Assembly (NCBI GenBank): GCA_964405805.1
Contig: CAYOPE010000001.1
Location: 4,898 to 68,897 of the forward strand
DNA length: 64,000 nt
Reading direction: 5' to 3'
From: an uncultured Candidatus Saccharibacteria bacterium
Lineage (GTDB): Bacteria > Patescibacteriota > Doudnabacteria > UBA920 > O2-02-FULL-48-8
Positions 9,651-57,601 of the stretch are shown here, piece after piece. The position numbers and the translations under genes are program-made. The notes under the pieces were generated by a model, which saw only the letters and a program-made list of their open reading frames with translations, ran no database searches and was not told the DNA's origin. Each line of letters starts with the position of its first letter. Within the stretch, counting starts at the first letter, position 1.

Positions 9651-9805
9651 TTGCCTTGACAATGATATTTAAAAGTAATCCAAGAAGAGTATCATAAAAG
9701 TATACAGATCAGCCAAAACAATCTAGGGTCCGGCTGAGTAAGTCACCCTAGTGGCAGATAGATAGGGAGGGAGTGTCTAAATTCGTTTTCAGAAGGAGGG
9801 ATAGC

Positions 9806-23388: not shown

Positions 23389-24630
23389 ATGCGGAAACAA
23401 ACAACACAAGAAAAAAAACAGATAGTAATACTCGGTGGCGGGTTCGCTGGCGTGCGAGCGGCTTTAGATTTGGATGATTACCTGCATGATGATGAAAATT
23501 ACGAAATCATTCTCATCGATCGGAAAGATTATCAGTGCTATCACGCTGGCCTCTACGAAGCAGCTACCACAGAGCATACTTTAGTAGCTGCGCGCAAAGT
23601 CAAACGGACTGTGGCCATTCCTTTTAGCGATATTTTTCCTCACACGAAAGTGAAAGTCTATAAAGCATATATTGAGCGGATCGATACAGTCAGTGGTAAG
23701 GTCGTGACTGATTCAAAAATTATACCTTATGATTACCTGGTCGTAGCTATGGGTAGCATGGCGGATTTTTATGATATTCCGAATCTCGACAAGTATGGCT
23801 ATACCCTGAAAAATTTGGAAGATGCGATCATGATTCGTAATCGGATCGAGGATTTGGTCATGAAAAATGATCAAGGGCAAATAATTATCGGCGGCGGCGG
23901 GTTTGCTGGAGTAGAATTCGCTTCAGAACTTCATAATTTGCTCAAGCATGAATGCCGAGATCATCAGAAAGACCCGAGCAAGTTTAAAATATTGATTGTC
24001 GAAGGTGGCACGAATTTTCTTCCCGGCCTTTCTGAGAAAGTTTCAGGCATGGTAGCAAGCAGAATGGCAGAGATGGGAGTGGAATCCAAGTTTAGCAGCC
24101 TGATCACTGAAGTAGGGAGTGATTTTGTCATGTTGAACATGAAAGATCGGATGCCTGCTGATCTACTGATCTGGACCGGGGGAGTCAGGTCGTGCGTCCT
24201 GCCAGTCGACTGTGCGCTCGAGCATGATAAAAAAGACCGGACCCTGACTTTGCCATCACTAAACCTGGGTCATTGCACAAATATTTTTATTATCGGCGAC
24301 AATCTCTGCATGGTGGATCCAATGACGAAAAAAATGGTGCCGCAAACTGCCCAGGAAGCAGTTCACCAGGGCAAACTAGCGGCGAAAAATATTTATCGCA
24401 TGATAAAAAACAAAACTCTACTGCCGTATCATCCGACTAGCTTGCGTTATGTCATTCCTGTGGGCGGCAAATTTGCCATCATGTATAGCCCGAACCTGAT
24501 CATTTCTGGCTTCTGGGGCTGGGTGATTCGTAAGGCTGCTGACCTGCGGTATTTCATGTCAGTTCTACCGATCTGGAAAGCTCTGGGCTACTGGCTGTTT
24601 GAAAATAATATTTTTATGAAAAATGATTAA
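23389..24630 (+). CDS. FAD/NAD(P)-binding oxidoreductase (type II NADH dehydrogenase-like)
   Basis: IVILGGGFAGV and a second IIIGGGGFAGVE dinucleotide-binding motif. Confidence 0.75.
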   Translation: MRKQTTQEKKQIVILGGGFAGVRAALDLDDYLHDDENYEIILIDRKDYQCYHAGLYEAATTEHTLVAARKVKRTVAIPFSDIFPHTKVKVYKAYIERIDTVSGKVVTDSKIIPYDYLVVAMGSMADFYDIPNLDKYGYTLKNLEDAIMIRNRIEDLVMKNDQGQIIIGGGGFAGVEFASELHNLLKHECRDHQKDPSKFKILIVEGGTNFLPGLSEKVSGMVASRMAEMGVESKFSSLITEVGSDFVMLNMKDRMPADLLIWTGGVRSCVLPVDCALEHDKKDRTLTLPSLNLGHCTNIFIIGDNLCMVDPMTKKMVPQTAQEAVHQGKLAAKNIYRMIKNKTLLPYHPTSLRYVIPVGGKFAIMYSPNLIISGFWGWVIRKAADLRYFMSVLPIWKALGYWLFENNIFMKND

Positions 24631-24636
24631 ATAATT

Positions 24637-25308
24637 ATGATATTTTCTCATTCAGTATTACCAATTTTAATTCTTTGGTTCGGAGTAGTGGTTTGGCATT
24701 TGATCAGATATCATACTTTCAAGTTCCATAAATTTAGATTTTCTGTAGGCAATCATTACTTAATGATGTCCAGTTTTGTCATAGGTTTACTACTTTATGC
24801 TTATGACATTCATTCGGTTAAGCCCATCATTATGTTTTTTGGATTTGCTTTGGCTGGAATCTCTGGTGTTATTTACGAAGAGTTGTTTGGTAAACATTTC
24901 TTACGAAGACGAGATCGAAAAGTCCACTGGTCTTGGTTTATTACGAGTTTTATCGGTTTAGTAATTTTAATTACCTGGTTTTTTTATTCCCGAGTGGGTA
25001 TTAATTCTATTTATGCCACTTCCATAGCATTTGTATGTATCGCAATATGTATAATTTTTATACGAAGAGATTTAATTTGGGATTCTCTACTAAGCGGAAT
25101 ATTAGTAGCATGTGTTATGTTATTAAGCTATCTAATTTTTTTAACGATTTTTCCTGAAGCGATAAAAAGATGGTGGTTTTTAAACAATATCAGTGGCATT
25201 TTGTTTTTAGGCATACCAATTGAGGAATTACTTTGGGCATTTTCCTGGGGACTCGTAGGCGGTCCAATCTACGAATTTATGGTGGGATTAAAATTTAAGA
25301 AGAGATAA
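24637..25308 (+). CDS. Hypothetical membrane protein
   Basis: Multiple TM helices; no family assigned. Confidence 0.5.
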   Translation: MIFSHSVLPILILWFGVVVWHLIRYHTFKFHKFRFSVGNHYLMMSSFVIGLLLYAYDIHSVKPIIMFFGFALAGISGVIYEELFGKHFLRRRDRKVHWSWFITSFIGLVILITWFFYSRVGINSIYATSIAFVCIAICIIFIRRDLIWDSLLSGILVACVMLLSYLIFLTIFPEAIKRWWFLNNISGILFLGIPIEELLWAFSWGLVGGPIYEFMVGLKFKKR

Positions 25309-36712: not shown

Positions 36713-38032
36713 TTGCAAAGCAAAATTGCGAAGGTTCGACCAATTACGACAATGGGGCGGCCAAGAAAACTCACACCCACAATTGAAAAGGCGCCACCGA
36801 AATTAGCCGGAGCCAATGATTTACTACCAGAGCACCATCTGTCCTGGGAAGTGTTTTTAGAAAAATTGACTCATACCGCTCATAATTTCGGTTACAGCAA
36901 AATCGAAACTCCGATTTTCGAGGACGCTCGACTGTTTAGCTTCTGGTCACAGGGAAAAGACCAGCTTTTGACCACGCAAGATGCGAAGGGCGGTGCGATT
37001 GCGGCCAAGCCAACCAATATTTTTAGCTTGGTGCGTGCTTATCTCGAGTATCATTTTCCAGAGCGAGAAAAAGTCAGTAAGTGGTATTATCATTCGCCAG
37101 TCAACTGGGTCAGTCCCACGCACGAAATCAAACAAACTGAAGAGTATGGTTTTCAAGTTTTCGGCGCTTTTGCCCCGATCGCTGATGCTCAGATGATCAA
37201 TTTGTTGCAACGTTTATTTTCTGATCTGGGGCTGAAAAATTTGTCTTTAGAAATAAACAACATTGGCTGCATCGAGTGTCAGCCAGCTTATGCTGAGCAG
37301 CTGAAAAATTATTTTAAAGACAAAAAATACGATTTGTGTGAAAATTGTTTGGATTATCTAGAAAACAATCAGCCGCTTCAAATTTTGGCATGCACGAATT
37401 TATCTTGTCATACGGTAGCCTCAGAAGCTCCAACTTTGATTGATTTTTTGTGTGAAAATTGTCGTAAACATTTCATTGGAGTTTTGGAAGGTTTAGATGA
37501 ATTGGGTCTTGTGTACAATTTGAATCCGAAAGTGATCGGTAAACCGTGGTCTCGAAAAACTGTTTTCGAAATCCGATTTCGTGGCGAAACTGGCGATGCG
37601 GTGCTAGGCAGTGGCGGCCATGCGGACGATCTGATTCAAAGTTTGGGAGGACTACCGACTACAGCGCTAGGATTTTCTGGCACGATAGACATGATCATGT
37701 CTTCTTTCGAGCTGGCTAATGTCAAATTTAGTACCAAGCAGCAAGTCGATGTGTTTTTGGTCCCCCTAGGTGACCTAGCTGCGAAAAAAACTCTCAGATT
37801 GTTTACTGAGCTTTGGAATCAGAACATCATGGCTTCAGAATTTTCAGGACCGGGATCGATAAAAACTCAGCTGAAGCTAGCTGAATCGAACAAAGTTAGT
37901 ATTGCTTTGATCATTGGACAAAAAGAAGCACGGGAAGGTACTGTCATCCTCCGTGATGTCCGCTCAGGCATGCAGGAGCTGTTTACTTACGAGCGAATCA
38001 TTGAGGAAGTGAAGAAGCGGCTTGGCAAATAG
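36713..38032 (+). CDS. Histidyl-tRNA synthetase-like paralog with degenerate catalytic motifs and a Cys-rich insertion
   Basis: HisRS-like class II core (GYSKIETPIFE...; motif 3 reduced to GSGGHADDL) and an anticodon-binding-like C-terminus. Motif 2 Arg/Gln residues are absent. Insertion CIEC...CENC...C...C...CENC. The canonical hisS is at 56363. Confidence 0.65.
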   Translation: MQSKIAKVRPITTMGRPRKLTPTIEKAPPKLAGANDLLPEHHLSWEVFLEKLTHTAHNFGYSKIETPIFEDARLFSFWSQGKDQLLTTQDAKGGAIAAKPTNIFSLVRAYLEYHFPEREKVSKWYYHSPVNWVSPTHEIKQTEEYGFQVFGAFAPIADAQMINLLQRLFSDLGLKNLSLEINNIGCIECQPAYAEQLKNYFKDKKYDLCENCLDYLENNQPLQILACTNLSCHTVASEAPTLIDFLCENCRKHFIGVLEGLDELGLVYNLNPKVIGKPWSRKTVFEIRFRGETGDAVLGSGGHADDLIQSLGGLPTTALGFSGTIDMIMSSFELANVKFSTKQQVDVFLVPLGDLAAKKTLRLFTELWNQNIMASEFSGPGSIKTQLKLAESNKVSIALIIGQKEAREGTVILRDVRSGMQELFTYERIIEEVKKRLGK

Positions 38033-41469: not shown

Positions 41470-42135
41470 ATGGCCAAACAAAAACCAGGCCAGAGGAGGA
41501 AAATGAAGACTTATAGCAACGTCGTTCTTGTCGATCACCCAGTGGCGCATGATGCGCTACGGATTCTGCGCGACAAGAACACCGAGCCTGCTGCTTTTCG
41601 AGCAGCAGCGATGCGCATCAGCCTGATCCTGGCTGCAGAGGCTCTCCGGGAGGCTCCGACTGAAGAGAGAGTCGTGCAAACCCCGCTGGCGGAAGCAGCT
41701 GCTCAGAGCCTCAAAGACATCGTGGTCGTGCCAGTGTTGCGCGCAGGTCTCGGCATGCTCGACGCCGTCTTGCAGCTGGCGCCAAACGCCCACGTCGGTC
41801 ACATCGGATTGCAGCGAGACGAAGTGACGGCCGTGGCGTCGCAGTACTACCTGAAACTACCGCCAAATCTCGAGAGCTCTCTCGTTCTGCTGGTTGACCC
41901 CATGCTCGCCACCGGCGGCAGCGCTGTGGCAGCAGTTGATCTTCTGAAACTCGCAGGAGCCACGAACATCAGGATGATCTGCATCGTGGCGGCTCCTGAG
42001 GGCATCGCACTCATGACCGAGAAGCATTCGGATGTCACGATCTATACGCCTGCAGTGGACAGTCATCTGAACGACCAAAAGTACATCGTGCCGGGTCTCG
42101 GTGACTTCGGCGACCGACTCTACGGCACATTCTAG
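41470..42135 (+). CDS. upp: Uracil phosphoribosyltransferase (GC-rich island)
   Basis: PVLRAGLGM and VLLVDPMLATGGSAVAAVDLLK PRPP-binding motif, C-terminal YIVPGLGDFGDRLYGT. ~60% GC. Confidence 0.88.
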   Translation: MAKQKPGQRRKMKTYSNVVLVDHPVAHDALRILRDKNTEPAAFRAAAMRISLILAAEALREAPTEERVVQTPLAEAAAQSLKDIVVVPVLRAGLGMLDAVLQLAPNAHVGHIGLQRDEVTAVASQYYLKLPPNLESSLVLLVDPMLATGGSAVAAVDLLKLAGATNIRMICIVAAPEGIALMTEKHSDVTIYTPAVDSHLNDQKYIVPGLGDFGDRLYGTF

Positions 42136-42322
42136 AACTAAAAGCACAAGGGCCGATCAATAGTGGTCGGCTCGAGGAAGTGTGGTTCACAGCAGCCACG
42201 CTTTTCTTTTTGCTTTTTTTCTATTTTATAATTATAGTAACCGCAACGGAAACCTGTCTGCCGACAGGCAGGCGAAAGTTTTCAGGGTGCTATCAGCACC
42301 TTTACAGAAAGGTTGGAGGAAG

Positions 42323-43822
42323 ATGGACAAGCTTAACGCGGTCGAAGTTGGTCAGCATATGGCAAATATTGGCGTCATGGGTGATGCCTGCGGCGGAGTT
42401 CAGATCGACATCGCCGTGGCCTATCGTCAGACGCCGGAAGGACTGGTCGAAGGAACGACATGCGACCATGACTGCACGAACAACGAAGGCTGTGGCAATT
42501 ACGACTGCCCGGCTCACTACAGCGCTCCTGGAAACAGAGGTTTGAAAATCACGAGCATGGCGCCGGCTGATGTCATGCTGGACCGGATCACCAACGCTGT
42601 CTGGGGAGTACGCCGGGCCGTGGAGCGGTTTCTGGAAGTTGATTACCACGGCTTCTGTTACACGTCTGAGATTCGTGACGAAGTCGTGAAAGGTGTGATC
42701 GAGAGCCGGCTGCGCATGGGCAAGGTCATCGTGAATGTCTTTGGCGGCGAGCCGCTTCTCTACCCGCACTTCCTTCAGCTCGAAGGGGCGCTGATGGACC
42801 GCGGTTACACGTTGAACGTCACGACCACGGGGGACAAATGGCTCGATCCGAAGTTCGCCAAGGCCATGGAAGACATCGAGCCCACTGTGCTGGCATTGAG
42901 CCTGGATGATCTGACGATTCCGGAACTCCGGCGCCTCTCGAAGCTCACGCCCGAGCAGATCAAGCAGGAATGGAAAGCTCTCAGGGCGAAAAACCCCAAG
43001 CATGGGCAGGCGCTCAAAGCCCTCGAAGCCGTTTACGTCTTCGCGTACTACAAGGAACGTGGCGGCTATCCCAAGGGCAAGAAGCTCCTGGCCAACGCGG
43101 TGGTCCACAAAGGCAACCTGTCTCACATTCGCGACATGTTCGAGGTCGTGGCTGAAGTCGCTCCGGGGATCGTGTTCAATCCGTACGCAGGTCAGGCTGC
43201 GTTCGACCACGATGAAACAACCGGCCTGCGGCGTCGTGGAGAATTCGGCGCCGACGAAGTCCAGCAGTTCTCGGATTTCGTGGACTGGTCGATTTCGGAA
43301 AGCAAGCGGCCGGATGGTGTGATCGTCAAACGTTTGCCGCACTGGCTCCTGCATCGGGCAGCACTCGATGTTCACGAAGGTAAGACACGGGAGCAGTCCG
43401 ACGCCATCGCTGGGTGGAACTCCTGGCGCTGTCACAATCACGTGGGCGCGGGATTCTTCATGCAAGTCGGTCGATCACCGAAAGTGCGGATACCGAATCA
43501 GCCGCAGGTGATTTCGATTCAGGGCCTGCACGGAAAGACCGGCAGTAACGGCCAAGTCTATCCGGGCGGGCATCTGGGGTGCTTCTGGGATCCGACGACC
43601 GTAACCCAGGACGGACAGTACCACGACCAGATGGAGGTCATGGATTACCTGCACTACGGCATGAAATCTCTCGCGCAGAAGTCTGCTGATCCCTGTCCCG
43701 GATGCCGAATGCCGCGGCTTGACTCACTCCATCTCGTGATCCTCGAGGCAGGGATTCCGACTGACGATCCGACGCTGAAGAACCGGTATCTGAATCTGCG
43801 TCGAGAGCACGCCGGGTTCTAA
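42323..43822 (+). CDS. Hypothetical Cys-rich protein, possibly a divergent radical-SAM-type enzyme
   Basis: ATG after GGAGG. N-terminal cluster CDHDC-x5-C-x4-C, then VNVFGGEPLL (radical-SAM-like glycine motif) and LNVTTTGD ~22 aa later. C-terminal cysteines CPGC. The Cys spacing is not the canonical CX3CX2C. Confidence 0.45.
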   Translation: MDKLNAVEVGQHMANIGVMGDACGGVQIDIAVAYRQTPEGLVEGTTCDHDCTNNEGCGNYDCPAHYSAPGNRGLKITSMAPADVMLDRITNAVWGVRRAVERFLEVDYHGFCYTSEIRDEVVKGVIESRLRMGKVIVNVFGGEPLLYPHFLQLEGALMDRGYTLNVTTTGDKWLDPKFAKAMEDIEPTVLALSLDDLTIPELRRLSKLTPEQIKQEWKALRAKNPKHGQALKALEAVYVFAYYKERGGYPKGKKLLANAVVHKGNLSHIRDMFEVVAEVAPGIVFNPYAGQAAFDHDETTGLRRRGEFGADEVQQFSDFVDWSISESKRPDGVIVKRLPHWLLHRAALDVHEGKTREQSDAIAGWNSWRCHNHVGAGFFMQVGRSPKVRIPNQPQVISIQGLHGKTGSNGQVYPGGHLGCFWDPTTVTQDGQYHDQMEVMDYLHYGMKSLAQKSADPCPGCRMPRLDSLHLVILEAGIPTDDPTLKNRYLNLRREHAGF

Positions 43823-43852
43823 ACGTAAATGGAGGACGGATGAAGAGACTGG

Positions 43853-43890
43853 CGGGTGCGCGTAGCGATTACGCGCCCCGCCTTTTTTCA
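43853..43890 (+). terminator. GC-rich rho-independent terminator
   Basis: ggcgggtgcgcgtagcgattacgcgccccgcc-tttttt. Confidence 0.7.
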
Positions 43891-43958
43891 TTTGCTAGTT
43901 TTTGTTTGTGGACGCTATAATGCATAAGTCAACCGAGACTCCGAGTTGGAGTTCTCAC

Positions 43959-44456
43959 ATCAACGGAGGTTTGCCTATGTGTCCCGAAAGTCTCGCGCAT
44001 CTCGCACGAGGAACGGCCGAGGTCGGTGATCAAGTCGTCGCCAAGGACTTCAAGCACCAGGGCAGCAGTCACACGTTCACGATGTACGCGCGCACGGACA
44101 ACCCGACGTGTCCGGTCTGTCTGCCGAACGGCGCCACGATCTGCTTCAAGGATCCGTCGAGGCGGGTTCGCCGGCTCGCGGAAGTCACAGACGGTCCGGT
44201 CGTGGCCACACTCGCCAACGGCGCGTTCTACGAGAGCACGTTCGCATTCGCGAACGGCGCGACGGCCACGCTGTCGGAGATCCGCGGTGCGGTCTTCAAC
44301 GTCATTCCCGCCATCGCCACGAGCGACGAGATCAACGAGGAGGCGCGGCGCATCTTCACTGAACTCAGCCCGGAACTCGATCCGGTGCTCGCTCAGGCCG
44401 CGGCGACGGCACGCATCGCCCGAACCCAGTCGCGCGGCCAGACGGTCGCGGCGTAG
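43959..44456 (+). CDS. Hypothetical protein (GC-rich island)
   Basis: ATG 8 nt after GGAGG. The alternative frame 44026-44820 is Arg/Ser low-complexity and judged spurious. Confidence 0.5.
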   Translation: MNGGLPMCPESLAHLARGTAEVGDQVVAKDFKHQGSSHTFTMYARTDNPTCPVCLPNGATICFKDPSRRVRRLAEVTDGPVVATLANGAFYESTFAFANGATATLSEIRGAVFNVIPAIATSDEINEEARRIFTELSPELDPVLAQAAATARIARTQSRGQTVAA

Positions 44457-44620
44457 CACGTCGCGTTCGACGCCGACACAACCAAGCGACGCAGGAAGCG
44501 TCGGGGCGGTTCACCACCAGGTGATCCGCTCTTTTCATTTGTCAGAAAATGCATGCGTTTGGTATCCTATAGTATCAAGCGCAGGGCTTGGTAATGTTTT
44601 CAGTCTGAAACGGAGGAGAG

Positions 44621-46102
44621 ATGATCCCAAGATATACGAATTCTCGGATCCAGGCTATCTGGTCGGATCAGAACAAGACCAGGCTCTGGGATTGCAGCGA
44701 ACTCGCTGCGGTCCAGGCTTCGGAAGAGCTTGGCGAATTTCCTGCCGGCGTGTATCAGAAGATTGCCGCATCGCTCGCAGCACATCCTGTGGATCTCGAG
44801 TGGTGGCTTGCGAAAGATAAAGAAATCCATCACGACCTCAATGCCTACCTCGAAGAGCGGCTGCGGTTCATCGTCAAGAACCTACAGATCTACTTTCATC
44901 GCTACATGACCTCGTTCGACACGGAGGAGCCGGCGTTCGGCCGAATGCTTCGTGACTCAGTCGACGTGGTACTCGAAATGTGTGCTGAACTCGATCTGAT
45001 TCTGGCTTCGCTGGCGCGCAGATACCAGTACACGGTCATGATCGGACGCAGTCATCAGCAAGGCGGCGATCTGCAGACTTTCGGCAAAAGGGTCTGCACG
45101 TGGCTACGAGATCTTCGTACTGCCGCCCAGATTCTGGGCGATGTATCGGTCGATCTCAAGTACTCGAAGATGTCAGGGGCCATGGGTAACTATGGTCTGT
45201 TCAAACCAGAAGTCGAGCGCCGAGCACTCGCGATTCTCGGCTTCGAGCCGTACGTCGGTGCCACACAGATTATGCCGCGGGTGCTTTACGTGCCAGTGGC
45301 TGCTGCGCTTTCGGGTTTGGTCTCGACTATTTCGAAAATCGGCAATGACATCCGCCTCGGCGCGCGCAGTCCGAAGCCCATCTGCCAGGAACCGTTCAAG
45401 AAAAAACAGAAGGGTTCGTCGGCCATGCCGCACAAGAAGAATCCGATTCGCTGCGAACAGCTGGAAGGCATGGCCAGGGTTGCCCGTGGCTTCCTATCGA
45501 TGAACGCCGAAAACGTGCAGACTGACGAGGAGCGCGCCATCGAACAGTCCTCAGTGGAACGAATCGCATGGCCGGACCTGTTTCATGTCACTTGTCAGGC
45601 TCTGGATGTGCTGACCCAGGTCACGTCCGGGTTGAAAGTCTATCCCGATAACATGCTCTGGGAACTCGTCCAATCGCGTGGTTGCTACGCGGCGTCACAG
45701 GCCAAAGAAGTCCTAAAGACCATGGGCGAGGAGCTGTGGAATGACGCTGAGGAGCCGTACCGAATAGTCCAACTGGCTGCGTTCAACGTCTTTGAACCCA
45801 GCCAGAAAGCAAAGCGCATGCGCGAATTCCCGGAAACCTCGTTTGCTTTCGCCGAAAATTTCCTGATGGCGCCACACTCGTTCGAAACCGAGTGTGTCAC
45901 CATCCAGGAGGTGATCGTGCGCGGGCGGCTGCGGGTATCTGATGAGCTCGACGCGGACGAAGCAGTGGTGCAGCGCTGGAATCGCATTCTGGATTCGATT
46001 TTCGCGGACGAACGGAATCGCGACCAGTGGACGGAAATTTTTCGTCCAGCAGTACTTCTGGCTCACGAGTCCGCGATCTTCGCAGCGCTCTTGGGCGAGT
46101 AG
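44621..46102 (+). CDS. purB: Adenylosuccinate lyase (fumarate lyase family)
   Basis: N-terminus MIPRYTNSRIQAIWSDQNK... and the fumarate-lyase signature GSSAMPHKKNP. Confidence 0.85.
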   Translation: MIPRYTNSRIQAIWSDQNKTRLWDCSELAAVQASEELGEFPAGVYQKIAASLAAHPVDLEWWLAKDKEIHHDLNAYLEERLRFIVKNLQIYFHRYMTSFDTEEPAFGRMLRDSVDVVLEMCAELDLILASLARRYQYTVMIGRSHQQGGDLQTFGKRVCTWLRDLRTAAQILGDVSVDLKYSKMSGAMGNYGLFKPEVERRALAILGFEPYVGATQIMPRVLYVPVAAALSGLVSTISKIGNDIRLGARSPKPICQEPFKKKQKGSSAMPHKKNPIRCEQLEGMARVARGFLSMNAENVQTDEERAIEQSSVERIAWPDLFHVTCQALDVLTQVTSGLKVYPDNMLWELVQSRGCYAASQAKEVLKTMGEELWNDAEEPYRIVQLAAFNVFEPSQKAKRMREFPETSFAFAENFLMAPHSFETECVTIQEVIVRGRLRVSDELDADEAVVQRWNRILDSIFADERNRDQWTEIFRPAVLLAHESAIFAALLGE

Positions 46103-46201
46103 AATTCGGGTTTTGAGTTCGGGCGGGTTGCGCTTGCAGCCCGCCCTTTTTCTATAGTATGATGTCCTATCTAGTTCCCTTCGTTCTGAGAGGAGGATTG
46201 T

Positions 46202-46798
46202 GTGACCGAAGCTGTGATCTTTGACTGCTGCGAAGTACTCTTAACCGGAGTTAAGGGTTGCTACGAGCAGTTCGGAAAACTGCTCGGAACCGATCCTGCG
46301 ACTGTGAAGTCTCGCCTCATGTGCGACATGGCTATGCGTCTGTTTTCCGGCCAGGCCACAGAAGAGGAGTATTGGACTGATGTCATCCGGCGTTCAGGCT
46401 GGACTCACGATAGTAAAGTCTTGGGCAAGCAGCTGCGCCGAAGCTTTCGAGAGATCCCAGGTACACGCAATCTCATCCGAGCCATGCGACGACAGGGATA
46501 CAAAACCGGTCTGCTTTCAGTGCACGCCCGCGAGTGGGTCGAGTACTGTCAGAGGCGCTTTCGTCATCACTGTCTGTTTGATGTGGTGCACTACTCGTAC
46601 CAGTTCCAACCGTCCAAACCGCATCCAGAATCGTTTGTGAATCTGGCTGCGGCACTGGGCGTCAGTATCACCAACTGCGTGGTCGTGGATGACCGCGCTG
46701 AAAATATCATTGCGGCCAGGACCCTGGGTGCCCAAGGGGTGATTTTCGAAACTGCTGAGCAGACAGAAGCAGAACTGTTTTCCCTGCTCAGACTCTAA
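46202..46798 (+). CDS. HAD-superfamily hydrolase-like protein
   Basis: GTG after GAGGAGG. AVIFDCCEVLL (motif I-like, second Asp replaced) and VVVDDRAENI (motif IV). Confidence 0.55.
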   Translation: MTEAVIFDCCEVLLTGVKGCYEQFGKLLGTDPATVKSRLMCDMAMRLFSGQATEEEYWTDVIRRSGWTHDSKVLGKQLRRSFREIPGTRNLIRAMRRQGYKTGLLSVHAREWVEYCQRRFRHHCLFDVVHYSYQFQPSKPHPESFVNLAAALGVSITNCVVVDDRAENIIAARTLGAQGVIFETAEQTEAELFSLLRL

Positions 46799-46815
46799 CT
46801 GACGAGGAGTGTGAC

Positions 46816-48114
46816 ATGACGACTAAGTTTGTTCGAGGCGAGAAGGTGGCCGAAGGCAAGACCAAGGTGATTTACGCAGACGAGAACGACCCGACCGGCG
46901 CCATCGTCTTTTCCAAGGACGATCTGACAGCCGGCGACGGCAAGCGGCACGAGGTCTTCGATGGCTTCGGCGCACTGTCGAATCTGACGACGATCAACAC
47001 ATTCAGCCTGCTCCGCGCCTGCGGCATCCCGGTGGCGTTTCGCGAGAAGATCGATGACAGGACGCTCTCAGCGGATCTGACAGACATGATTCCGCTCGAA
47101 GTGGTGACGCGTCGCGAGGCGCACGGCTCGTTCCTCAAGCGCCATCCGTACCTGAAGCGCGACCACTACTTCCCGCGCCTCGTCTTCGAGCTGTTCCTGA
47201 AGACATCGGGAAAGAAGTGGAAGGAACACAATCTGCTCTGCGACGATCCTTACATGGACTACACGTCGCGACAGGAGCAGGGTTTGGTCGGGTTGTTCTT
47301 GCCCGATCAGCCCCTCTGGTCGCAGCCTTCACCTATGCATGTGGTGAACAGTTCTGAGATCGAAGGGTTTGAGCGCCTGCAGGAGATCGAGGAGATCACC
47401 AGAAAGGTCACCCTCGTCCTGGACAAGGCGCTGCAGATGGTCGGGATCAGGTTCGCGGACATGAAGATCGAGTTCGGAATCACGAAAGATGGCCGACTCG
47501 TGGTCTCAGACGTGATCGACAGTTCGTCGTGGCGGATCGTGGGACCGGACGGGAAGTACATCGACAAACAGCTGTTTCGAGACGGAGCCGAGGTTCCAGT
47601 CATGGCGCAGGTTTTCGCCCGAGGGCTCGAGATCACAAGCCGGTTTCAGGTGCCACCGAAGCAGCAGATCGTCATCTGGACCGGCTCACCGAAGGACGAG
47701 GTCTCGAAGTTCAAAGAGTGGTTGGAGAGTCATCCTCTGCCAATCCAAGTCGTGTATGTGGCCCTGTCCGCGCACAAGCAGCCTGTCCTGGCCGTTCAGA
47801 AGCTCCAGCAGCTCGTGCAGATGACGCCGGACACAGTGGTGGTGGCGTTCATCGGCCGATCCAACGGCGCCGGCCCCACGCTCTCCGGTGCAGTCAGTGT
47901 GCCTGTCCTGACTGTGCCGGCGGACTTCCAGAAAATGCCGGAAGATGTCTGGTCGAGTTTGCGCACACCGAGTGACGTGCCAGTCTCGACCATGCTGGAA
48001 CCCGGGAATGCCCTGCTTCAGGCGGTCCAGATCTTGGCGATGCGCAATCCGCAGCTATATATGGAGCTGCGTCATCGACAGGAAGATCGCCTGAGCAACT
48101 TCGCGCTGCTGTAG
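46816..48114 (+). CDS. purC: Bifunctional PurC-PurE fusion (SAICAR synthetase N-terminal, AIR carboxylase/PurE-like C-terminal)
   Basis: N-terminal ...GEKVAEGKTKVIYADENDP...VFSKDDLTAGDG... is PurC-like. The C-terminal 150 aa (LSAHKQP, GRSNGAGPTLSG, VPVLTVP, NALLQAVQILA) parallel PurE motifs (SAHRTP, AGGAAHLPG, VPVIGVP). Confidence 0.7.
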   Translation: MTTKFVRGEKVAEGKTKVIYADENDPTGAIVFSKDDLTAGDGKRHEVFDGFGALSNLTTINTFSLLRACGIPVAFREKIDDRTLSADLTDMIPLEVVTRREAHGSFLKRHPYLKRDHYFPRLVFELFLKTSGKKWKEHNLLCDDPYMDYTSRQEQGLVGLFLPDQPLWSQPSPMHVVNSSEIEGFERLQEIEEITRKVTLVLDKALQMVGIRFADMKIEFGITKDGRLVVSDVIDSSSWRIVGPDGKYIDKQLFRDGAEVPVMAQVFARGLEITSRFQVPPKQQIVIWTGSPKDEVSKFKEWLESHPLPIQVVYVALSAHKQPVLAVQKLQQLVQMTPDTVVVAFIGRSNGAGPTLSGAVSVPVLTVPADFQKMPEDVWSSLRTPSDVPVSTMLEPGNALLQAVQILAMRNPQLYMELRHRQEDRLSNFALL

Positions 48115-48204: not shown

Positions 48205-49365
48205 TTATTTTGTTTCTACGAGATCCCACACATATTTCGCGGCGTTGATGGGTTTGCCGATGAGGGGATCGTGGTGAAGCTGGATGAATGGCGCGCCATT
48301 GCACTCAATGATCCCGCATTTTTGCTCTTTGTAAGATTTAGTGATGTCAGGAATGATAAAATCAAAGCCGAGAATTGATACATCCAGAAGCTGGCCAGCT
48401 TTCGCCAGCATCTCTTTCGTCTCTGGATGTGTCTCATCAGTGCAGTCATAAGAAGTGCCGCCATAATTGACGCCAATTTTTTCAGAAAGTGCCACAGTCT
48501 GATCTTTGGCCAAAATTAAATCCATACCGAGACTATTGCGCTGCATGAAATACGGATTGACTTTTATCTCTTTTACTTTGTCCGGTCTCTGGGCATCTTT
48601 GATTTTGATGAGTTCTGCGATAGTGTGAATGCCATCACCAGTGACCTGAGGCGAGGAGCCGCCTAGGACTCCGACTAGTTTGCCTCCGATCACAGTACCA
48701 CGCTGCACATCGCCATAGAGATGTTCTTCGATGATAACCCAGTGGCAGACTTGCTTGGAAATTTTAAAAGCTTTTTCCAAATCGTCTTTGGTGTAGACCA
48801 TGGTCGTGGTGTGTCGGCCGCGGGAGCCAGCACGCGGCTTGACGATAAGAGGCTTTTCGAGGGCATCAAATGTTTTGAGGGCTTGAGATACTCTAGTAAA
48901 TGACCCACCAGCAGCCACAGGGAAGTGATATTCGAGTAATTTTTTCTTCAGAAGATATTTATCATCAATCCAAGTTAGGTTTGAGGTAGCGACTTTTTCT
49001 GATCTTGGCAGATTCATAAAATAATGCCAGCGGTTTTGGAGCTTTACTCGATACAGATCTATGGATTTGCCAAATGGCTTGAGTTCCTCGATCTGAAGTC
49101 CTCTGGCGAGCGCTTCTTCCCATAGGACACGCGCACGATCATAAGGAATATTTTTTATATCGCGATTGATTTGAATGAGTCCGAGTGGTTTCAGAACATG
49201 AAAAACAGAAATGCCGATCCATTCGCCAAGTTTGTCCATGATTTGGCCCAACCGACTCTGGACCAAGGTCCGCCTGATCGGGCTAAACAGAATATCTATG
49301 GATTCATAGAATTTGTGAGTCCTGTGCGGTATGGGGTTATTCCCACAGTAAAGGCAGGTTTGCAT
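48205..49365 (-). CDS. ATP-grasp domain protein (cyanophycin-synthetase-N-terminal-like / amino-acid ligase)
   Basis: ATP-grasp core (...KPRAGSRGRH..., GGTSYDCTDETHPE...ILGFDFIIPDITKS). Start placed at MQTCLYCGN because the upstream 78 nt of the longer ORF translate a palindromic repeat. Confidence 0.65.
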   Translation of the reverse strand: MQTCLYCGNNPIPHRTHKFYESIDILFSPIRRTLVQSRLGQIMDKLGEWIGISVFHVLKPLGLIQINRDIKNIPYDRARVLWEEALARGLQIEELKPFGKSIDLYRVKLQNRWHYFMNLPRSEKVATSNLTWIDDKYLLKKKLLEYHFPVAAGGSFTRVSQALKTFDALEKPLIVKPRAGSRGRHTTTMVYTKDDLEKAFKISKQVCHWVIIEEHLYGDVQRGTVIGGKLVGVLGGSSPQVTGDGIHTIAELIKIKDAQRPDKVKEIKVNPYFMQRNSLGMDLILAKDQTVALSEKIGVNYGGTSYDCTDETHPETKEMLAKAGQLLDVSILGFDFIIPDITKSYKEQKCGIIECNGAPFIQLHHDPLIGKPINAAKYVWDLVETK

Positions 49366-49402
49366 GAGTGAATTATACCCCTCACCCGGCGCTTCGCGCC
49401 AC

Positions 49403-49426
49403 CCTCTCCCGGAAGCGGGAGAGGGA
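49403..49426. repeat. Perfect hairpin ccctctccc-ggaa-gcgggagaggg (CTCC/GGAG hairpin family)
   Basis: Same family as 11668-11708, 55227-55248, 55631-55649 and others. Confidence 0.6.
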
Positions 49427-49566
49427 AAATCTGAATTTGACAAACTAAATTCTCAGAAGACACTTTTGTTGATAAGTTTTTCTAGATGTAGAGCGGTAAA
49501 GCAAAATCTATCGAAAAAGTGGGTTTTGACAGGTTTCTATATATAGCGATATATTAACTATGGTTA

Positions 49567-50254: not shown

Positions 50255-52909
50255 ATGCAACCAAAAGAAAACCTACAAGAAAGAAAAGTAAATGCACTCG
50301 CTGAGCTTGGCGAAAAGATTTTCCTCGATCGCTACGCCATTAAGGACGCGAAAAAGGAAAGTCTCAGTGTAGGTGATACTGCGGTGGTATGTGTGAACCT
50401 AAAAACCGGGCAGCGTGAGATCGGGGTACTGGAAAAAATCGACAGAGAAGCACGCGAAGTAGTAGTCAAGCTTCGTGATGGCACTCTCGAAACTCGATCT
50501 ATTGATCATGTGGACAAGCCATTGGAAACTATGCCAGAACAGATGTTTGAACGCATTGCCAAACACATTGCATCAGTTGAAAACACAGATGAATTGAAAC
50601 AAGAATGGGAAGGACGATTTCGCGAGCTCATGAATGACTGGAAATACGTGCCAGCAGGAAGAATTTTTACAGGCGCAGGCACTGGCCAGAATCTGACTTT
50701 TTATAATTGTTACGTCATACCTTCCCCGCGCGATTCGCGAGGTGGAATTTTCGAGACCCTGGGCCAAATGGCGGAAATCATGTCACGCGGCGGCGGGGTA
50801 GGAATCAATGTCTCGACACTGCGTCCTCGCTACGCTTATGTGAAAGGCGTGAATGGCCGTTCTTCTGGCTCTGTGTCCTGGGCATCACTTTATTCATTTG
50901 TCACTGGGCTCATTGAGCAGGGCGGATCCAGACGCGGAGCGCTGATGTTGATTTTAAACGTCTGGCATCCTGATGTCGTGGATTTTATCAATTCGAAAAA
51001 AGAAGCCGGCAAGATTACGAATGCGAATATTTCTGTAGGAATCACAGATGATTTCATGACTGCGGTGAAGAATGACCAGCCGTGGGATCTAGTTTTTCCA
51101 GACACTTCAGATCCGATGTACCGCGATCGCTGGGATGGAAACATCGGTCGCTGGAAGGAAATTGGTGGTAAAGTCATCAAGCACAAGACGGTTCGTGCCA
51201 AAGACATTTGGGAAAATATTATTTCCTCTGCATGGTCTTCTGCTGAGCCTGGCATGTATTTTATTGATCGAGCGAATTACTACTCCAATTCTCACTATTT
51301 CGCAGATCTGCCATGCACGAATCCTTGTGGCGAGCAGCCGCTGCCTGCCTGGGGCGTGTGTAACCTCGGTCACATCAACCTTGCCAAGCACGTGGATTAC
51401 AGTAAAAAAGATGTGGACTGGAATAAATTAAAGAGAACTGTGCAGGATGCAGTCAGATTTCAGGACAATGTCATTGATGCGACACCTTATTTCTTTGATG
51501 AAAATTATCAGCAGCAAATGAGTGAGCGCAGAGTTGGCATGGGCACGATTGGTCTTGCTGAAATGCTGATTCATTTGGGACTCCGTTATGGTTCTCCTCA
51601 AGGAGTTGAGTTTATCGATAAACTTTACCAGTTTATTTCTATCACAGCCTACGAAACTTCAGTTGATCTCGCTCGTGAAAAGGGTGCGTTTAGTAAATTC
51701 GAAGTTGATAAGTTTTTGCAATCAGGCTTCATGCAGCGAATGCCAGAATACATTCGCCATCTCGTGCGCCAATACGGAATTCGAAACGTAACTATTTTGA
51801 CACAAGCACCGACTGGGACTGTGGGAACAATGGTAGGAACATCCACAGGCATCGAGCCGTTCTTCTCTTGGACATATTTCAGAAAATCTCGACTCGGTGT
51901 GCATCAGGAGCACATCAAACTTGCCAAAGACTGGCTGGATGCGCATCCAGGCGAATCTCTGCCTGACTATTACGTCACAGCTATGGAACTGACTCCAGAA
52001 GAGCACGTGCGTGTGCAGGCTGCTGTGCAGCGCTGGACTGATAGCGCTATCTCAAAAACTGTAAATGCGCCAGAAAACTATACTGTGGAGCAAACTGCGA
52101 AACTCTATGAGTTGCTGTATGATTTGGGAGCTAAAGGCGGGACGATTTACAGAGATGGCTCACGTGATGAACAGATCTTGGCTGTAGATCATAAAAAATT
52201 GGGCAAAGATGCGGCTGAACAAGTGGAGAATGGTAAAGCTGTGATCAAACAGGAACAGCCTGTTCAACCAATACCAACTCCTGAACCTGCCCCAGCACCT
52301 CAAATGCCACCGCAGCCTCAGATGAACTCAATCCAACCCCGCAAGCGACCAGATGTCATGCAAGGATCGACTTATAAAGTCGCGACAGCTTATGGTAATC
52401 TTTATGTCACGGTCAATGAAGACGAGTATGGACCATTTGAAGTTTTCTCGCAGCTTGGCAAGGCTGGTGGCTTCTTCGGCGCTCAGACTGAAGCGATTTG
52501 TCGCATGATTTCTCTGGCACTGCGCTCAGGAATTAGTTTGCCTACAGTTGTCGAGCAGCTCAAAGGCATCCGCGGTCCGGATCCCATGTTCCACAATGGT
52601 GAGCGCATTTTGTCGCTCCCAGATGCGATTGCAAATGTCCTAGAAAATCACATTAAGCGCGGACAGAAAGAACTCCAGCTGGATTTTTCAAAGATAGAAA
52701 AGTCTTCCTTCGCTAAAGCTTCGGAGGACAAGCAACCCGTCTTTCAAGCAGTAACCAAAGAAGTTCATTCTACCGGTTCCGCGTTTGTCACCACACAGAA
52801 GGCAGTTGCTGACTTTGGCGATGCGCCAGTGTGTATGGTTTGTAGCAACATGCTTCGCATGGCAGAAGGTTGCATGAAATGTGAGTACTGCGGGTGGAGT
52901 AAATGCTGA
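50255..52909 (+). CDS. nrdJ: Class II (adenosylcobalamin-dependent) ribonucleotide reductase
   Basis: Active-site NPCGEQPLPAWGVCNLGHINL and a C-terminal Cys-rich tail CMVCSN...CMKCEYCGWSKC; 884 aa. Confidence 0.88.
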   Translation: MQPKENLQERKVNALAELGEKIFLDRYAIKDAKKESLSVGDTAVVCVNLKTGQREIGVLEKIDREAREVVVKLRDGTLETRSIDHVDKPLETMPEQMFERIAKHIASVENTDELKQEWEGRFRELMNDWKYVPAGRIFTGAGTGQNLTFYNCYVIPSPRDSRGGIFETLGQMAEIMSRGGGVGINVSTLRPRYAYVKGVNGRSSGSVSWASLYSFVTGLIEQGGSRRGALMLILNVWHPDVVDFINSKKEAGKITNANISVGITDDFMTAVKNDQPWDLVFPDTSDPMYRDRWDGNIGRWKEIGGKVIKHKTVRAKDIWENIISSAWSSAEPGMYFIDRANYYSNSHYFADLPCTNPCGEQPLPAWGVCNLGHINLAKHVDYSKKDVDWNKLKRTVQDAVRFQDNVIDATPYFFDENYQQQMSERRVGMGTIGLAEMLIHLGLRYGSPQGVEFIDKLYQFISITAYETSVDLAREKGAFSKFEVDKFLQSGFMQRMPEYIRHLVRQYGIRNVTILTQAPTGTVGTMVGTSTGIEPFFSWTYFRKSRLGVHQEHIKLAKDWLDAHPGESLPDYYVTAMELTPEEHVRVQAAVQRWTDSAISKTVNAPENYTVEQTAKLYELLYDLGAKGGTIYRDGSRDEQILAVDHKKLGKDAAEQVENGKAVIKQEQPVQPIPTPEPAPAPQMPPQPQMNSIQPRKRPDVMQGSTYKVATAYGNLYVTVNEDEYGPFEVFSQLGKAGGFFGAQTEAICRMISLALRSGISLPTVVEQLKGIRGPDPMFHNGERILSLPDAIANVLENHIKRGQKELQLDFSKIEKSSFAKASEDKQPVFQAVTKEVHSTGSAFVTTQKAVADFGDAPVCMVCSNMLRMAEGCMKCEYCGWSKC

Positions 52910-53145
52910 TGGATTTTTTAGATGAACAGAAACAAGCTGGTCCAAGGGCTCCTAGTAAAGAGAGAAGAAGAGAGGAGCGACCAAAAAATAATCCTAAAGA
53001 AGATCTAGGCTACAGAATTAAAGGATTGGAAGCAGCAAAAATGGAGCCTGGTATGAGTCCGGCAGATCTAGCGGCACTGGATCGAAGCATTGAGGCGCTG
53101 AAAAAGAAACAAGCAGAAAAAAATCAACCGAAACAAGAAGATTAA
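52903..53145 (+). CDS. Small basic hypothetical protein, translationally coupled to nrdJ
   Basis: 80-aa Lys/Arg/Glu-rich ORF overlapping the nrdJ stop by 7 nt. Confidence 0.4.
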   Translation: MLMDFLDEQKQAGPRAPSKERRREERPKNNPKEDLGYRIKGLEAAKMEPGMSPADLAALDRSIEALKKKQAEKNQPKQED

Positions 53146-53148
53146 AAG

Positions 53149-53177
53149 ATGGGCGGTCCGCCGTCAGCGGACCGCCT
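53149..53177 (+). terminator. Rho-independent terminator
   Basis: ggcggtccgc-cgtca-gcggaccgcc followed by ttaaaaattt. Confidence 0.55.
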
Positions 53178-53186
53178 TAAAAATTT

Positions 53187-53639
53187 ATGGACTGTGTATT
53201 TTGTAAAATTGTTAGTGACGAGTTTGATTCCGCAAAGATCTGGGAAGATGAAAACTATCTGGCGATTTTGGACGTGAATCCCAATGTCCGAGGCATGACT
53301 TTAGTAATGCCCAAAAAGCATTTTGATTCTGATTTGTTTGATATGCCAGAGCAAGATTATAGTGATTTTTTGATTGCAACACGCAAAGTAGCTAAGCTTT
53401 TAGAAAAAAGTCTAGAAGTAAAGCGGGTTGCTCTTGTACTTGAAGGCATGGGTATCAATCATTTGCACGCAAAGTTGTATCCCTTGCATGGTCTTGATGA
53501 AAAATTCCAAGAGATGTGGGCGAGGGACCGTGTGTACTTTGATAAATACGAAGGCTATATCACGACGCAACTTGGTCCCAAGAAAGAATTGGCTGAACTA
53601 AAGCAATTAGCCGAAGAGATTAAGAAAAATGTCGGCTAA
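53187..53639 (+). CDS. HIT family protein
   Basis: MDCVFCKIV... and histidine triad region INHLHAKL. Confidence 0.75.
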   Translation: MDCVFCKIVSDEFDSAKIWEDENYLAILDVNPNVRGMTLVMPKKHFDSDLFDMPEQDYSDFLIATRKVAKLLEKSLEVKRVALVLEGMGINHLHAKLYPLHGLDEKFQEMWARDRVYFDKYEGYITTQLGPKKELAELKQLAEEIKKNVG

Positions 53640-54162
53640 AAAAGGTTTAACCATAATTTACATTGGCGATGGGAAGGGGAAGACCTCTGCGGCGGCGGGG
53701 TTGGCTGTGCGCGCTGCGGGCACAGGATTTAAAGTTTTGTATTTGCAGTTTGTGAAAGGCGACTGGCCGAGCGGTGAGCGAGAAGTTCTGTCGAAACTGA
53801 AAAATGTGGAAGCGAAACTCATGGGCAGAGGATTTGTAGGAATCCTCGGAGATCGTAAACCGATTGAGGAACATATAAAAGCTGCGAAGAATGCGATGAA
53901 AGAGTCGATCAAAGCTCTGAAATCAAAAAAGTATGATCTGGTGATCCTGGATGAAGCGATTTCCGCCATTGAATCTGATTTGCTGACTATTGCTGATGTG
54001 GAAAAAATTATCAAATCCAAGCCAGCCGAAGTTCATCTATGCCTCACAGGCCACAAGCGGATAAAAAAATTGATTGACTTGGCAGATCTGGTCACAGAGA
54101 TGAAGATGATTAAGCACCCATACTATCAGGGGATACTAGCACAACGAGGCATTGACTATTGA
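53629..54162 (+). CDS. cobO: Cob(I)alamin adenosyltransferase (CobO/CobA/BtuR family)
   Basis: GLTIIYIGDGKGKTSAAAGLAVRAAGTGFKVLYLQFVKG is the family P-loop region. Confidence 0.8.
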   Translation: MSAKKGLTIIYIGDGKGKTSAAAGLAVRAAGTGFKVLYLQFVKGDWPSGEREVLSKLKNVEAKLMGRGFVGILGDRKPIEEHIKAAKNAMKESIKALKSKKYDLVILDEAISAIESDLLTIADVEKIIKSKPAEVHLCLTGHKRIKKLIDLADLVTEMKMIKHPYYQGILAQRGIDY

Positions 54163-56362: not shown

Positions 56363-57601
56363 ATGGCAAAAGAAATACCTCAGGTACTCAAGGGCTTTCG
56401 GGACTATCTGCCGCAGGAGCAGGCTGCTCGAAAGAAAATAATTGCGAAAATCTCTGAAGCTTTCGAGCGTTTCGGGTTTTTGCCTTTGGATACGCCAGCT
56501 CTGGAGCCATACGAATTATTTAAAGGCAAAATCGGCGAAGACGAAAAATTAATTTATAAATTTCAAGATCTCGGTGATCGTGAAGTAGCGTTGCGCTATG
56601 ATTTAACAGTCCCACTAGTGCGCGTGGTTTCTGAGTATCAGGATTTGCCGAAACCGTTTAAACGATACCAGATCGCCAATGTCTGGCGCGCTGACAAACC
56701 ACAAAAGGGAAGATACCGAGAATTCACGCAGTGCGACATAGATATCGTGGGCAGTAACTCGAAAATCGCAGACGCGGAAATCATCGCAGCTATGCTTGCG
56801 GCCTACAATAGTCTGGAGATGGGAAATTTTACTGTAAAAGTCAATGACCGCGAGCTAGTAAATCAGGTTTTAAGTGGGCTTGATGTGCCCAAAGAAAAAG
56901 TGGCTGGGTTTATCCGCATCATGGATAAGGTTGCTAAGATTGGTGAAGAGAAAGCATCAGCTATGCTGGTCGAAGCTGGATTTGAAAAAGAAATTCTGAA
57001 GAAATACTCGGAAGCTTGGGAAAGTTCTAGCAAATCATACTTCGACCAATTGCAAAAGCTACTTAGTGGCATGGGCGTGCCGAATATAGTTTTCGATAAA
57101 TACCTCATGCGCGGACAAGACTACTACACTGGCATCATTTTCGAATTTGAAATGAAAGAAAAACCAGAATTTGGCTCGCTCGGCGGCGGCGGTAGGTATG
57201 ATAAAATGTTTGGTCAGGTCACTGGCACTGACATGCCGGCAGTGGGAGGATCGATCGGCTTTGATCGGATGTTTGCGGCCCTTCAGGAAATGGGAGTGAT
57301 CGCCCCTCAGACTGCTGCTGAAGTGATTGTCTTTAATTTGGATGAAAAATTGACTGCAGAATATCTAAATATCGTAACCAATCTTCGAAACGCAGGAATC
57401 GATACTGAATTTTATTATGATGCCGTGAAAATTGATAAGCAATTTAAATATGCAGAGAGCAAAAACATGCAGGTCGCAGTGATCTTTGGCGAAAAAGAAG
57501 CAGGAATGCGCAAAGTCAACCTGAAAAATTTGCAAGAAAAAGAACAGCGGACCGTGGACATGGATGATTTGGTGACAGAAGTGAAGAGCATGCTCTGGTA
57601 A
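56363..57601 (+). CDS. hisS: Histidine--tRNA ligase (canonical)
   Basis: Motif 1/2/3 intact (...RYDLTVPLVR..., RYQIANVWRADKPQKGRYREFTQCD, GGGGRYD) and an anticodon-binding domain. Confidence 0.95.
   Translation: MAKEIPQVLKGFRDYLPQEQAARKKIIAKISEAFERFGFLPLDTPALEPYELFKGKIGEDEKLIYKFQDLGDREVALRYDLTVPLVRVVSEYQDLPKPFKRYQIANVWRADKPQKGRYREFTQCDIDIVGSNSKIADAEIIAAMLAAYNSLEMGNFTVKVNDRELVNQVLSGLDVPKEKVAGFIRIMDKVAKIGEEKASAMLVEAGFEKEILKKYSEAWESSSKSYFDQLQKLLSGMGVPNIVFDKYLMRGQDYYTGIIFEFEMKEKPEFGSLGGGGRYDKMFGQVTGTDMPAVGGSIGFDRMFAALQEMGVIAPQTAAEVIVFNLDEKLTAEYLNIVTNLRNAGIDTEFYYDAVKIDKQFKYAESKNMQVAVIFGEKEAGMRKVNLKNLQEKEQRTVDMDDLVTEVKSMLW

Follow-up and report, generated by a model that had tools for sequence, protein, structure and literature searches.

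A stretch of DNA of 64,000 nucleotides (contig CAYOPE010000001.1, positions 4,898 to 68,897, referred to here at its full length as the window) carries a single gene whose predicted product joins a SAICAR (phosphoribosylaminoimidazole-succinocarboxamide) synthetase, PurC, to a PurE-type carboxylase of 5-aminoimidazole ribonucleotide (AIR), in the order known from animal PAICS. We hold it about 85% probable that the product is a bifunctional PAICS-type protein of bacteria, acting in de novo purine synthesis, and that its gene resides in a horizontally exchanged cassette of a Doudnabacteria-like host from the candidate phyla radiation (CPR). In such a scheme, the class II PurE domain would carboxylate AIR with CO2 to carboxy-AIR (CAIR), with no need for ATP, N5-carboxy-AIR (N5-CAIR) or PurK; the SAICAR synthetase domain would then join CAIR to aspartate using ATP, and the adjoining PurB-like lyase would turn SAICAR into aminoimidazole carboxamide ribonucleotide (AICAR). 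The gene itself would sit in a compositionally foreign, horizontally exchanged cassette, at a position where close relatives have split purE and purC, purC alone, or nothing. The architecture, the homology, the conserved catalytic residues, the operon context in other prokaryotes and the variability of the genomic slot were all observed, and we infer enzymatic activity and PurK independence of the fusion protein as well as horizontal acquisition of its gene. The gene and its parts are as follows.

46816..48114, + strand: PAICS-type bifunctional open reading frame (ORF), 432 amino acids plus stop (ORF listing, Pfam, full-length matches to PAICS, AlphaFold2 model)
46816..47640, + strand: SAICAR synthetase (PurC) domain, covering residues 1 to about 275, aligned to the active-site residues listed for human PAICS
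47665..48111, + strand: predicted class II PurE (AIR carboxylase) domain, about residues 284-432 (Pfam AIRC, motif matches to human PAICS)
46804..46809, + strand: Shine-Dalgarno sequence GAGGAG, 6 nt before the ATG of the fusion gene, read directly from the sequence

The reading frame is unbroken across exactly 46816..48114 on the + strand (432 codons). Its N-terminal part matched the Pfam family SAICAR_synt (PF01259, E 1.4e-34, 120 bits with a cutoff of 20), the strongest stretch being residues 11-131 with another stretch beyond, and residues 285-424 matched AIRC (PF00731, E 2.1e-17, 63 bits with a gathering cutoff of 30). The PAICS architecture, with SAICAR_synt N-terminal and AIRC C-terminal within one ORF, is therefore present, and an identical fusion protein is encoded by an independent Logan assembly contig (L001). 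A word-indexed search with the window protein returned 1798 matches, and because all 120 of the 120 listed ones carry both Pfam domains, the fusion is not an artefact of a frameshift or of gene calling. The existence of a real two-domain protein with the PAICS domain order is thus confirmed. This is what the initial annotation had proposed from the translation, and the ORF, the Pfam domains and the collinearity with animal PAICS bear it out. The motifs on which that proposal was based (LSAHKQP, GRSNGAGPTLSG and VPVLTVP) were each found in the translation and in the alignment, and the AIRC match shows that the C-terminal region does align to PurE, as had been anticipated.

The closest relationship to proteins of solved structure is to the animal enzymes. 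In phmmer searches the best matches were PAICS of Bombyx (4ja0, E 4.2e-53) and of human (2h31, E 2.7e-46), with both domains covered, and stand-alone enzymes were far weaker (best PurC 4.5e-21, best PurE 6.8e-7). BLASTP placed residues 8-419 onto residues 10-403 of human PAICS at 33% identity (E 1e-53); the human query, entered by hand, gave an alignment in agreement with that of phmmer and shares 92.7% identity with protein P0380. An AlphaFold2 monomer model built with 13 homologs as input reached a mean predicted local distance difference test score (pLDDT) of 83.9 and a predicted template modelling score of 0.86. Its top Foldseek match was human PAICS (6yb8, E 1e-31, 434 columns), then Bombyx 4ja0, followed by stand-alone PurC structures; the best PurE was the class II enzyme of Treponema denticola, with a template modelling (TM) score of 0.78 and a root-mean-square deviation (rmsd) of 2.6 Å. 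By analogy with the animal proteins, the window protein may assemble into an octamer like theirs.

We compared the active site of the C-terminal domain with the residue lists published for human PAICS (PMC9376930), mapped through phmmer, BLASTP and three-way alignments. In the human enzyme H303 is the general base, which is reported to be universally conserved in PurE (PMC9376930). Its counterpart in the window protein is H320, within S318-A319-H320-K321 (human S301-K304, K321 corresponding to K304), and G290-S291, D294 and G347-R348-S349-N350-G351 align with human G273-S274, D277 and G330-G334, respectively. Over the 13 homologs, S318, H320, K321, G347-G351, G290-S291 and D294 are invariant or nearly so; relative to human, the site is changed at two positions, S276 being K293 and L335 being A352 in the window protein. 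In the three-way alignment, the window protein and the human domain have SAHK, GRSNGxGP and DVWSSLRxPS where the class I enzyme of E. coli has SAHR, AGGAAHLPG and SLYSIVQMPR (both references were entered by hand, the human one being the sequence 92.7% identical to P0380). Moreover, class I PurE structures were weaker matches than class II in both phmmer and Foldseek, and the NCBIfam equivalog model of class I, TIGR01162, gave 62.8 bits with a cutoff of 149.6. A class I N5-CAIR mutase (EC 5.4.99.18) is ruled out by these motifs and by the TIGR01162 score. Since SAHK and GRSNGxGP, both signatures of class II, are present together with the catalytic histidine, we assign the C-terminal domain to class II PurE (AIR carboxylase, EC 4.1.1.21), predicted to be active and independent of PurK. 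The suggestion that this domain might be class II or inactive therefore holds in its first part, which the motifs, the match to T. denticola and the low TIGR01162 score favour, and finds no support in its second, as the catalytic residues are kept. No purK was found within the 64-kb window, nor in the homologous operons L091 and L093 described below.

The N-terminal domain was compared with the ligand residues of human SAICAR synthetase (G16-K19, T40-G42, E97, K131, D133, D137, K191, E193, D207, D212-R215, K228 and R232). Conserved in the window protein are G14-K15-T16-K17 (the GKTK loop), T38-A39-G40, E95, K129, M216-K217-x-E219, D232, S238-W239-R240, K251 and R255, and replaced are human N43 (D41) and human D212 (S237). 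The position of D212 is occupied by Ser in the window protein and its three nearest relatives and by Asp in other bacterial homologs. K129 is followed by an insertion of 12-13 residues (SGKKWKEHNLLC), which animal PAICS does not have and which is kept in 13 of 13 aligned bacterial homologs, with W135, H138, L140, D143 and D144 invariant among them. This segment is poorly modelled (block 131-140 has a pLDDT of 57), and owing to it the counterparts of human D133 and D137 are ambiguous, as the HMMER and BLASTP placements disagree.

Proteins of this kind are widespread in bacteria. The listed matches came mostly from Verrucomicrobiota at about 50% identity, and relatives bear the JGI label 'phosphoribosylaminoimidazole carboxylase / phosphoribosylaminoimidazole-succinocarboxamide synthase'. 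In a scan with one genome per GTDB species, at least 520 genomes encode a relative, among them Verrucomicrobiota, Xanthobacteraceae/Pseudolabrys, Tepidisphaerales and many CPR lineages (Paceibacterota, Saccharibacteria, Gracilibacteria, and Vogel-, Kaiser-, Giovannoni- and Staskawiczbacteria). An exhaustive search of representatives at 50% identity gave 307 clusters at E <= 1e-30, a number that includes stand-alone PurC of the same subtype. The rarity that the initial annotation implied for a bacterial fusion does not stand: the relatives occur in those 520 or more species genomes and are already annotated automatically as bifunctional. The PAICS-type fusion is common in several bacterial groups, and the window gene is an ordinary, if fairly divergent, member of the family. 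In the literature searched we found no description or biochemistry of bacterial PAICS-type fusions; the family is known to databases and apparently not to that experimental literature.

The context of the fused gene elsewhere bears on its role. Operon L091 reads PurH-PAICS-PurM-PurS-PurQ-PurL-GuaB-GuaA and operon L093 reads PurL-PurQ-PurM-PAICS-PurF/N-PurD-PurH, and neither contains purK or a further purE or purC. Among 145 ORFs within 6 kb of a PAICS-type gene at 15 CPR loci, we found AIRS/AIRS_C five times, Lyase_1 five times (four with ASL_C) and AICARFT_IMPCHas with MGS four times. Such purine-operon contexts support a normal de novo purine role of the fused gene. As a separate observation, the PAICS-type genes of L091 (8001-9275) and L093 (2951-4192) are prokaryotic ones lying inside complete purine operons without purK, and the L091 protein, 45% identical to human PAICS, comes nearer to the animal enzyme than any other prokaryotic protein in our analysis.

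The window has a CPR-like content (type IV pilus genes, FtsA/FtsZ, LytR, NrdR with class II ribonucleotide reductase, DnaK/DnaJ), and its FtsZ is 75-87% identical to proteins labelled Candidatus Doudnabacteria by NCBI. The fusion gene is the last of a GC-rich block that includes the features below.

41470..48114, + strand: GC-rich variable slot, 6.6 kb between ftsZ and the ATP-grasp/nrdR genes
44621..46102, + strand: PurB-like adenylosuccinate/SAICAR lyase, 493 amino acids (Pfam Lyase_1; SSAMPHKKNP signature in the translation)
46121..46146, + strand: strong terminator-like hairpin after purB, 11 pairs of which 9 GC, with a T-run (pattern scan)
46202..46798, + strand: haloacid dehalogenase (HAD)-IA family hydrolase (Pfam Hydrolase and HAD_2; NCBIfam HAD-SF-IA-v3 above cutoff)

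The order of genes in the slot is Upp, a radical S-adenosylmethionine (SAM)-like gene, an ORF of 184 amino acids of unknown function, the PurB-like lyase, the HAD-IA hydrolase and the PAICS-type gene. The lyase matched the purB model TIGR00928 with E 2.7e-85 and 286.8 bits, under the cutoff of 326.2. The hydrolase gene, 17 nt upstream of the fusion gene, is probably on the same transcript. The pairing of purB with the fusion gene is retained in L003, L004 and six CPR loci, and in L003 and L004 no HAD gene lies between the two. The slot has a GC content of 57.4%, in comparison to 45.7% outside, and GC at third codon positions of 0.60-0.78, in comparison to 0.41-0.53 in flanking genes. We compared it with relatives whose core genes (FtsA, FtsZ, HisRS, ribonucleotide reductase, NrdR, ATP-grasp) are 70-91% identical to those of the window; their slots hold the following.

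L089: a single small ORF, that is, an empty slot
L085: PIN-Upp-radical SAM, plus toxin-antitoxin genes, without pur genes
L090: Upp-478aa-Amidohydro_2-PaaX_M-PurB, then stand-alone PurC
ERZ27297570 contig: PyrD-PyrF-240aa, then stand-alone PurE (165 amino acids), then stand-alone PurC (349 amino acids)
L088: PyrD-PyrF-...-PAICS-type gene, just 49% identical to that of the window
L003: PyrF-PyrE-PurB-PAICS-NrdR

Slot genes common to several of these genomes are merely 26-50% identical, and in each genome they are GC-richer than the flanks. The PAICS-type gene also lies 4-13 GC points above its 10-kb flanks in 13 of 14 CPR loci (L015, L027, L032-L036, L045, L046, L053, L060, L078, L079 and L082), the exception being L033. 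Repeated transfer from donors of higher GC content might explain this excess, as might a composition bias specific to the gene. No flanking repeats or integrase marks were found at the slot ends. A search of L090 PurC against the window protein gave no tblastn match at E <= 1e-3. A local read-through fusion of split genes is ruled out, as the split pair is reversed (purE, then purC) and its PurC is longer and different. Because the split pair is opposite in order and its PurC is of a different type, the fused gene is a replacement rather than a local fusion, and we infer that the slot is a hot spot of recombination or transfer at which the fused gene replaced split purE/purC.

Several points weigh against the interpretation of the gene as a de novo enzyme in an exchanged cassette. 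The counterpart of the Mg-binding residue D137 is ambiguous, its likely equivalent, as judged from the alignments, being D144 of the invariant DDP (D143-D144-P145). At three of the listed active-site positions the residue is not that of the human enzyme (S237 in place of D212, in the window subclade only; K293 in place of S276; D41 in place of N43). The protein scores far under the NCBIfam equivalog cutoffs of both purC and purE; for purC, the model TIGR00081 gave 87.9 bits with a cutoff of 189.9, so that the protein, being fused to PurE, does not classify as a stand-alone PurC. No purine-pathway genes other than those of the PurB-like lyase and the fusion protein were found within the 64-kb window. 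Finally, horizontal transfer is suggested by composition and patchy synteny, and no donor closer than about 51% identity was found outside the window clade.

The alternative that fares best, although we consider it improbable, is that PurB, the HAD hydrolase and the PAICS-type protein form a partial or salvage module, turning imported AIR or its riboside into AICAR, or make a modified nucleotide, in a symbiont that does not have the other steps. The solitary position of the three genes within 64 kb would fit such a module, as would the insertion of a HAD phosphatase beside the fusion gene, the change of D212 to Ser in the window subclade, and the finding that the same slot in relatives holds just late pyrimidine steps (PyrD/F/E) plus PurE/PurC. 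Complete nucleotide synthesis is reported to be often missing from CPR bacteria (PMC8407418), and such frequent incompleteness points the same way. However, the same fused gene adjoins purM/L and purH in other CPR genomes and stands inside the complete operons of other prokaryotes, which favours the de novo role.

It is less probable still that the PurE-like domain has no catalytic function or serves a purely structural one, for instance as a scaffold for oligomerisation, and that the PurC half works alone. One might think so from the merely 63 bits on Pfam AIRC and the 62.8 bits on TIGR01162, with its 149.6-bit cutoff, and from the two changes relative to human, S276 to K293 and L335 to A352. 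Low scores can be attributed, however, to the divergence of class II from models dominated by class I, and the catalytic histidine, SAHK, GRSNG, the GS..D residues and the DVWSSLRxPS block are invariant over 13 diverse homologs. The fold is confident and in superposition fits the class II PurE of T. denticola (rmsd 2.6 Å, TM 0.78), and the otherwise complete pur operons of L091 and L093 contain no PurE but the fused one. Just as improbable is a mis-assembly or a binning chimera that brought in the GC-rich block with the fusion gene from a GC-richer organism, because despite the abrupt step of about 12 GC points at both block ends and the limited reach of Logan contig L001 (only from the unknown ORF through the fusion gene, ending 5 bp past its stop codon), relatives on independent contigs show the same neighbourhoods (L003 reads PurB-PAICS-NrdR, with NrdR 80% identical to that of the window; L088 reads FtsZ-PyrD-PyrF-...-PAICS; L090 reads Upp-...-PurB-PurC-ATP-grasp; L085 reads Upp-radical SAM-...-ATP-grasp-NrdR), slot genes are GC-rich in all of the relatives' genomes, and PAICS-type genes exceed their flanks in 13 of 14 CPR loci.

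As to the origin of the architecture, in a first neighbour-joining (NJ) tree of 80-odd loci human and Bombyx fell outside all bacterial sequences. When 92 full-length sequences (50% representatives) were placed in an NJ tree, human PAICS, a sponge protein (P0361, Oscarella) and the animal-like P0356 clustered with prokaryotic P0384, P0362 and P0340, and this group splits from all other bacterial members with a bootstrap of 100/100. The operon of P0384 reads PurH-PAICS-PurM-PurS-PurQ-PurL, that of P0362 reads PurL-PurQ-PurM-PAICS-PurF/N-PurD-PurH, and P0340 comes from Woykebacteria/Microgenomates. Rooting of each domain tree with hand-entered E. coli PurC or PurE was unstable, the root falling on the animal branch in just 6% of replicates. 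The trees, made by distance methods with distant outgroups and few eukaryotes, are suggestive of a prokaryotic origin of the PAICS architecture, not decisive. It is therefore only tentatively that we entertain the idea of fused PAICS as an old prokaryotic invention, with the animal enzyme derived from within the prokaryotic radiation and CPR bacteria swapping, in parallel, fused, split and absent versions at the ftsZ-nrdR hot spot.

Other genes near the fusion gene deserve mention. The ATP-grasp ligase at 48205-49443 (- strand) is similar to cyanophycin synthetase or GshAB in their ATP-grasp portion (E 2.7e-51; PF02222 at E 0.076) and is kept beside nrdR in L085 and L090 regardless of what the slot contains. 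As a candidate hidden PurK it was rejected, being cyanophycin-synthetase/GshAB-like and 73-74% identical in relatives without PurE. The radical-SAM-like gene at 42182-43822 (NCBI start about 42323) encodes a protein with 8 homologs among 5.8 billion proteins, which has CxxxC-x10-C instead of CxxxCxxC, the motifs GGEP and NLTTTG, and four more invariant cysteines; the gene always adjoins upp (in the window, in L085 and probably in L090). A link of this gene to purC, for which there is an archaeal precedent (PMC3261824), is unsupported, as the gene accompanies upp and occurs in L085, where there is no purC/E. The ORF at 43902-44456 is a candidate of 184 amino acids with a TTG start and 63% GC; it is called as a gene on L001, has no Pfam or NCBIfam match and is overlapped by long ORFs in other frames.

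Further away in the window, there are two HisRS-like genes (36713-38032 and 56363-57601), both also found in L089, the first being the weaker on Pfam (E 3e-17, with 1.5e-40 for the second); one of them may be a paralog with another role. An ORF at 9773-10540 has a TonB C-terminal domain (E 2e-22) and belongs to a further GC-rich patch (10-12 kb, about 54% GC). CPR bacteria are thought to have no outer membrane, which makes a TonB domain unexpected. A gene of the pyridine-nucleotide disulphide oxidoreductase family, followed by a lycopene-cyclase-domain gene, occupies 23389-25308, and these may be a carotenoid-type pair in a CPR genome. There is an IS200-like Y1 transposase ORF at 19878-20501. 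At 50255-54162, a ribonucleotide reductase of class II (B12-type), which has a TSCPD domain, is followed by an HIT protein and a CobA/BtuR corrinoid adenosyltransferase, an arrangement shared with L089.

PAICS has been presented as the animal solution, its bacterial counterpart being PurK with class I PurE and a separate PurC (PMC9376930, PMC3261824, PMC10484210), and this difference between animals and bacteria underlies the antimicrobial targeting of PurE and PurK. A large set of predicted bacterial PAICS-type enzymes, of which the window gene encodes one, means that the dichotomy is not clean. A small bacterial homolog could be a tractable model of PAICS catalysis and channelling. The variable GC-rich nucleotide-synthesis cassette illustrates how biosynthetic steps are gained and replaced in reduced CPR symbionts. 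The gene does not represent a new kind of system; what our analysis adds is the wide distribution of the 'animal' PAICS architecture among prokaryotes and a variable slot for nucleotide synthesis in a CPR lineage.

In comparison to animal PAICS (human 2H31/6YB8, Bombyx mori 4JA0), the window protein has the same succession of SAICAR synthetase and class II AIR carboxylase domains (432 and 425 amino acids), the catalytic motifs of the latter and most ligand residues of the former, in a collinear alignment with 33% identity to human. It differs in being prokaryotic, with a gene that adjoins purB in a bacterial cluster, in the 12-13 residue insertion after K129, which the animal proteins do not have, and, relative to human, in missing the C-terminal tail of about 20 residues and in having Ser for D212 and Lys for S276. 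PurE of T. denticola (3RG8/3RGG) is a bacterial class II AIR carboxylase and the best stand-alone PurE match (E 6.8e-7; TM 0.78, rmsd 2.6 Å), yet it is a single-domain protein of 159 amino acids without a PurC fusion and only about 24% identical. The E. coli-type route by PurK, class I PurE and separate PurC shares the net chemistry from AIR to SAICAR and the folds of both domains, whereas it needs ATP-dependent PurK and N5-CAIR mutase, and its SAHR and AGGAAHLPG motifs are replaced in the window protein, which scores under the equivalog models. Split purE and purC of the ERZ27297570 contig and stand-alone purC of L090 occupy the same position upstream of the ATP-grasp gene and nrdR, with presumably the same pathway role; the former are separate genes in the order purE, then purC, and PurC of both is of a longer type (327-349 amino acids). 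PAICS-type proteins of prokaryotes (Verrucomicrobiota, Xanthobacteraceae and CPR), annotated in databases only, share the architecture and the family-specific insertion and are 45-51% identical to the window protein (59-73% for the three closest metagenomic relatives). Unlike them, it belongs to a small long-branched subclade (the window protein, P0002/L004 and P0003/L003; NJ bootstrap 100/100) that has Ser rather than Asp at the position of human D212, and its nearest relative is 73% identical.

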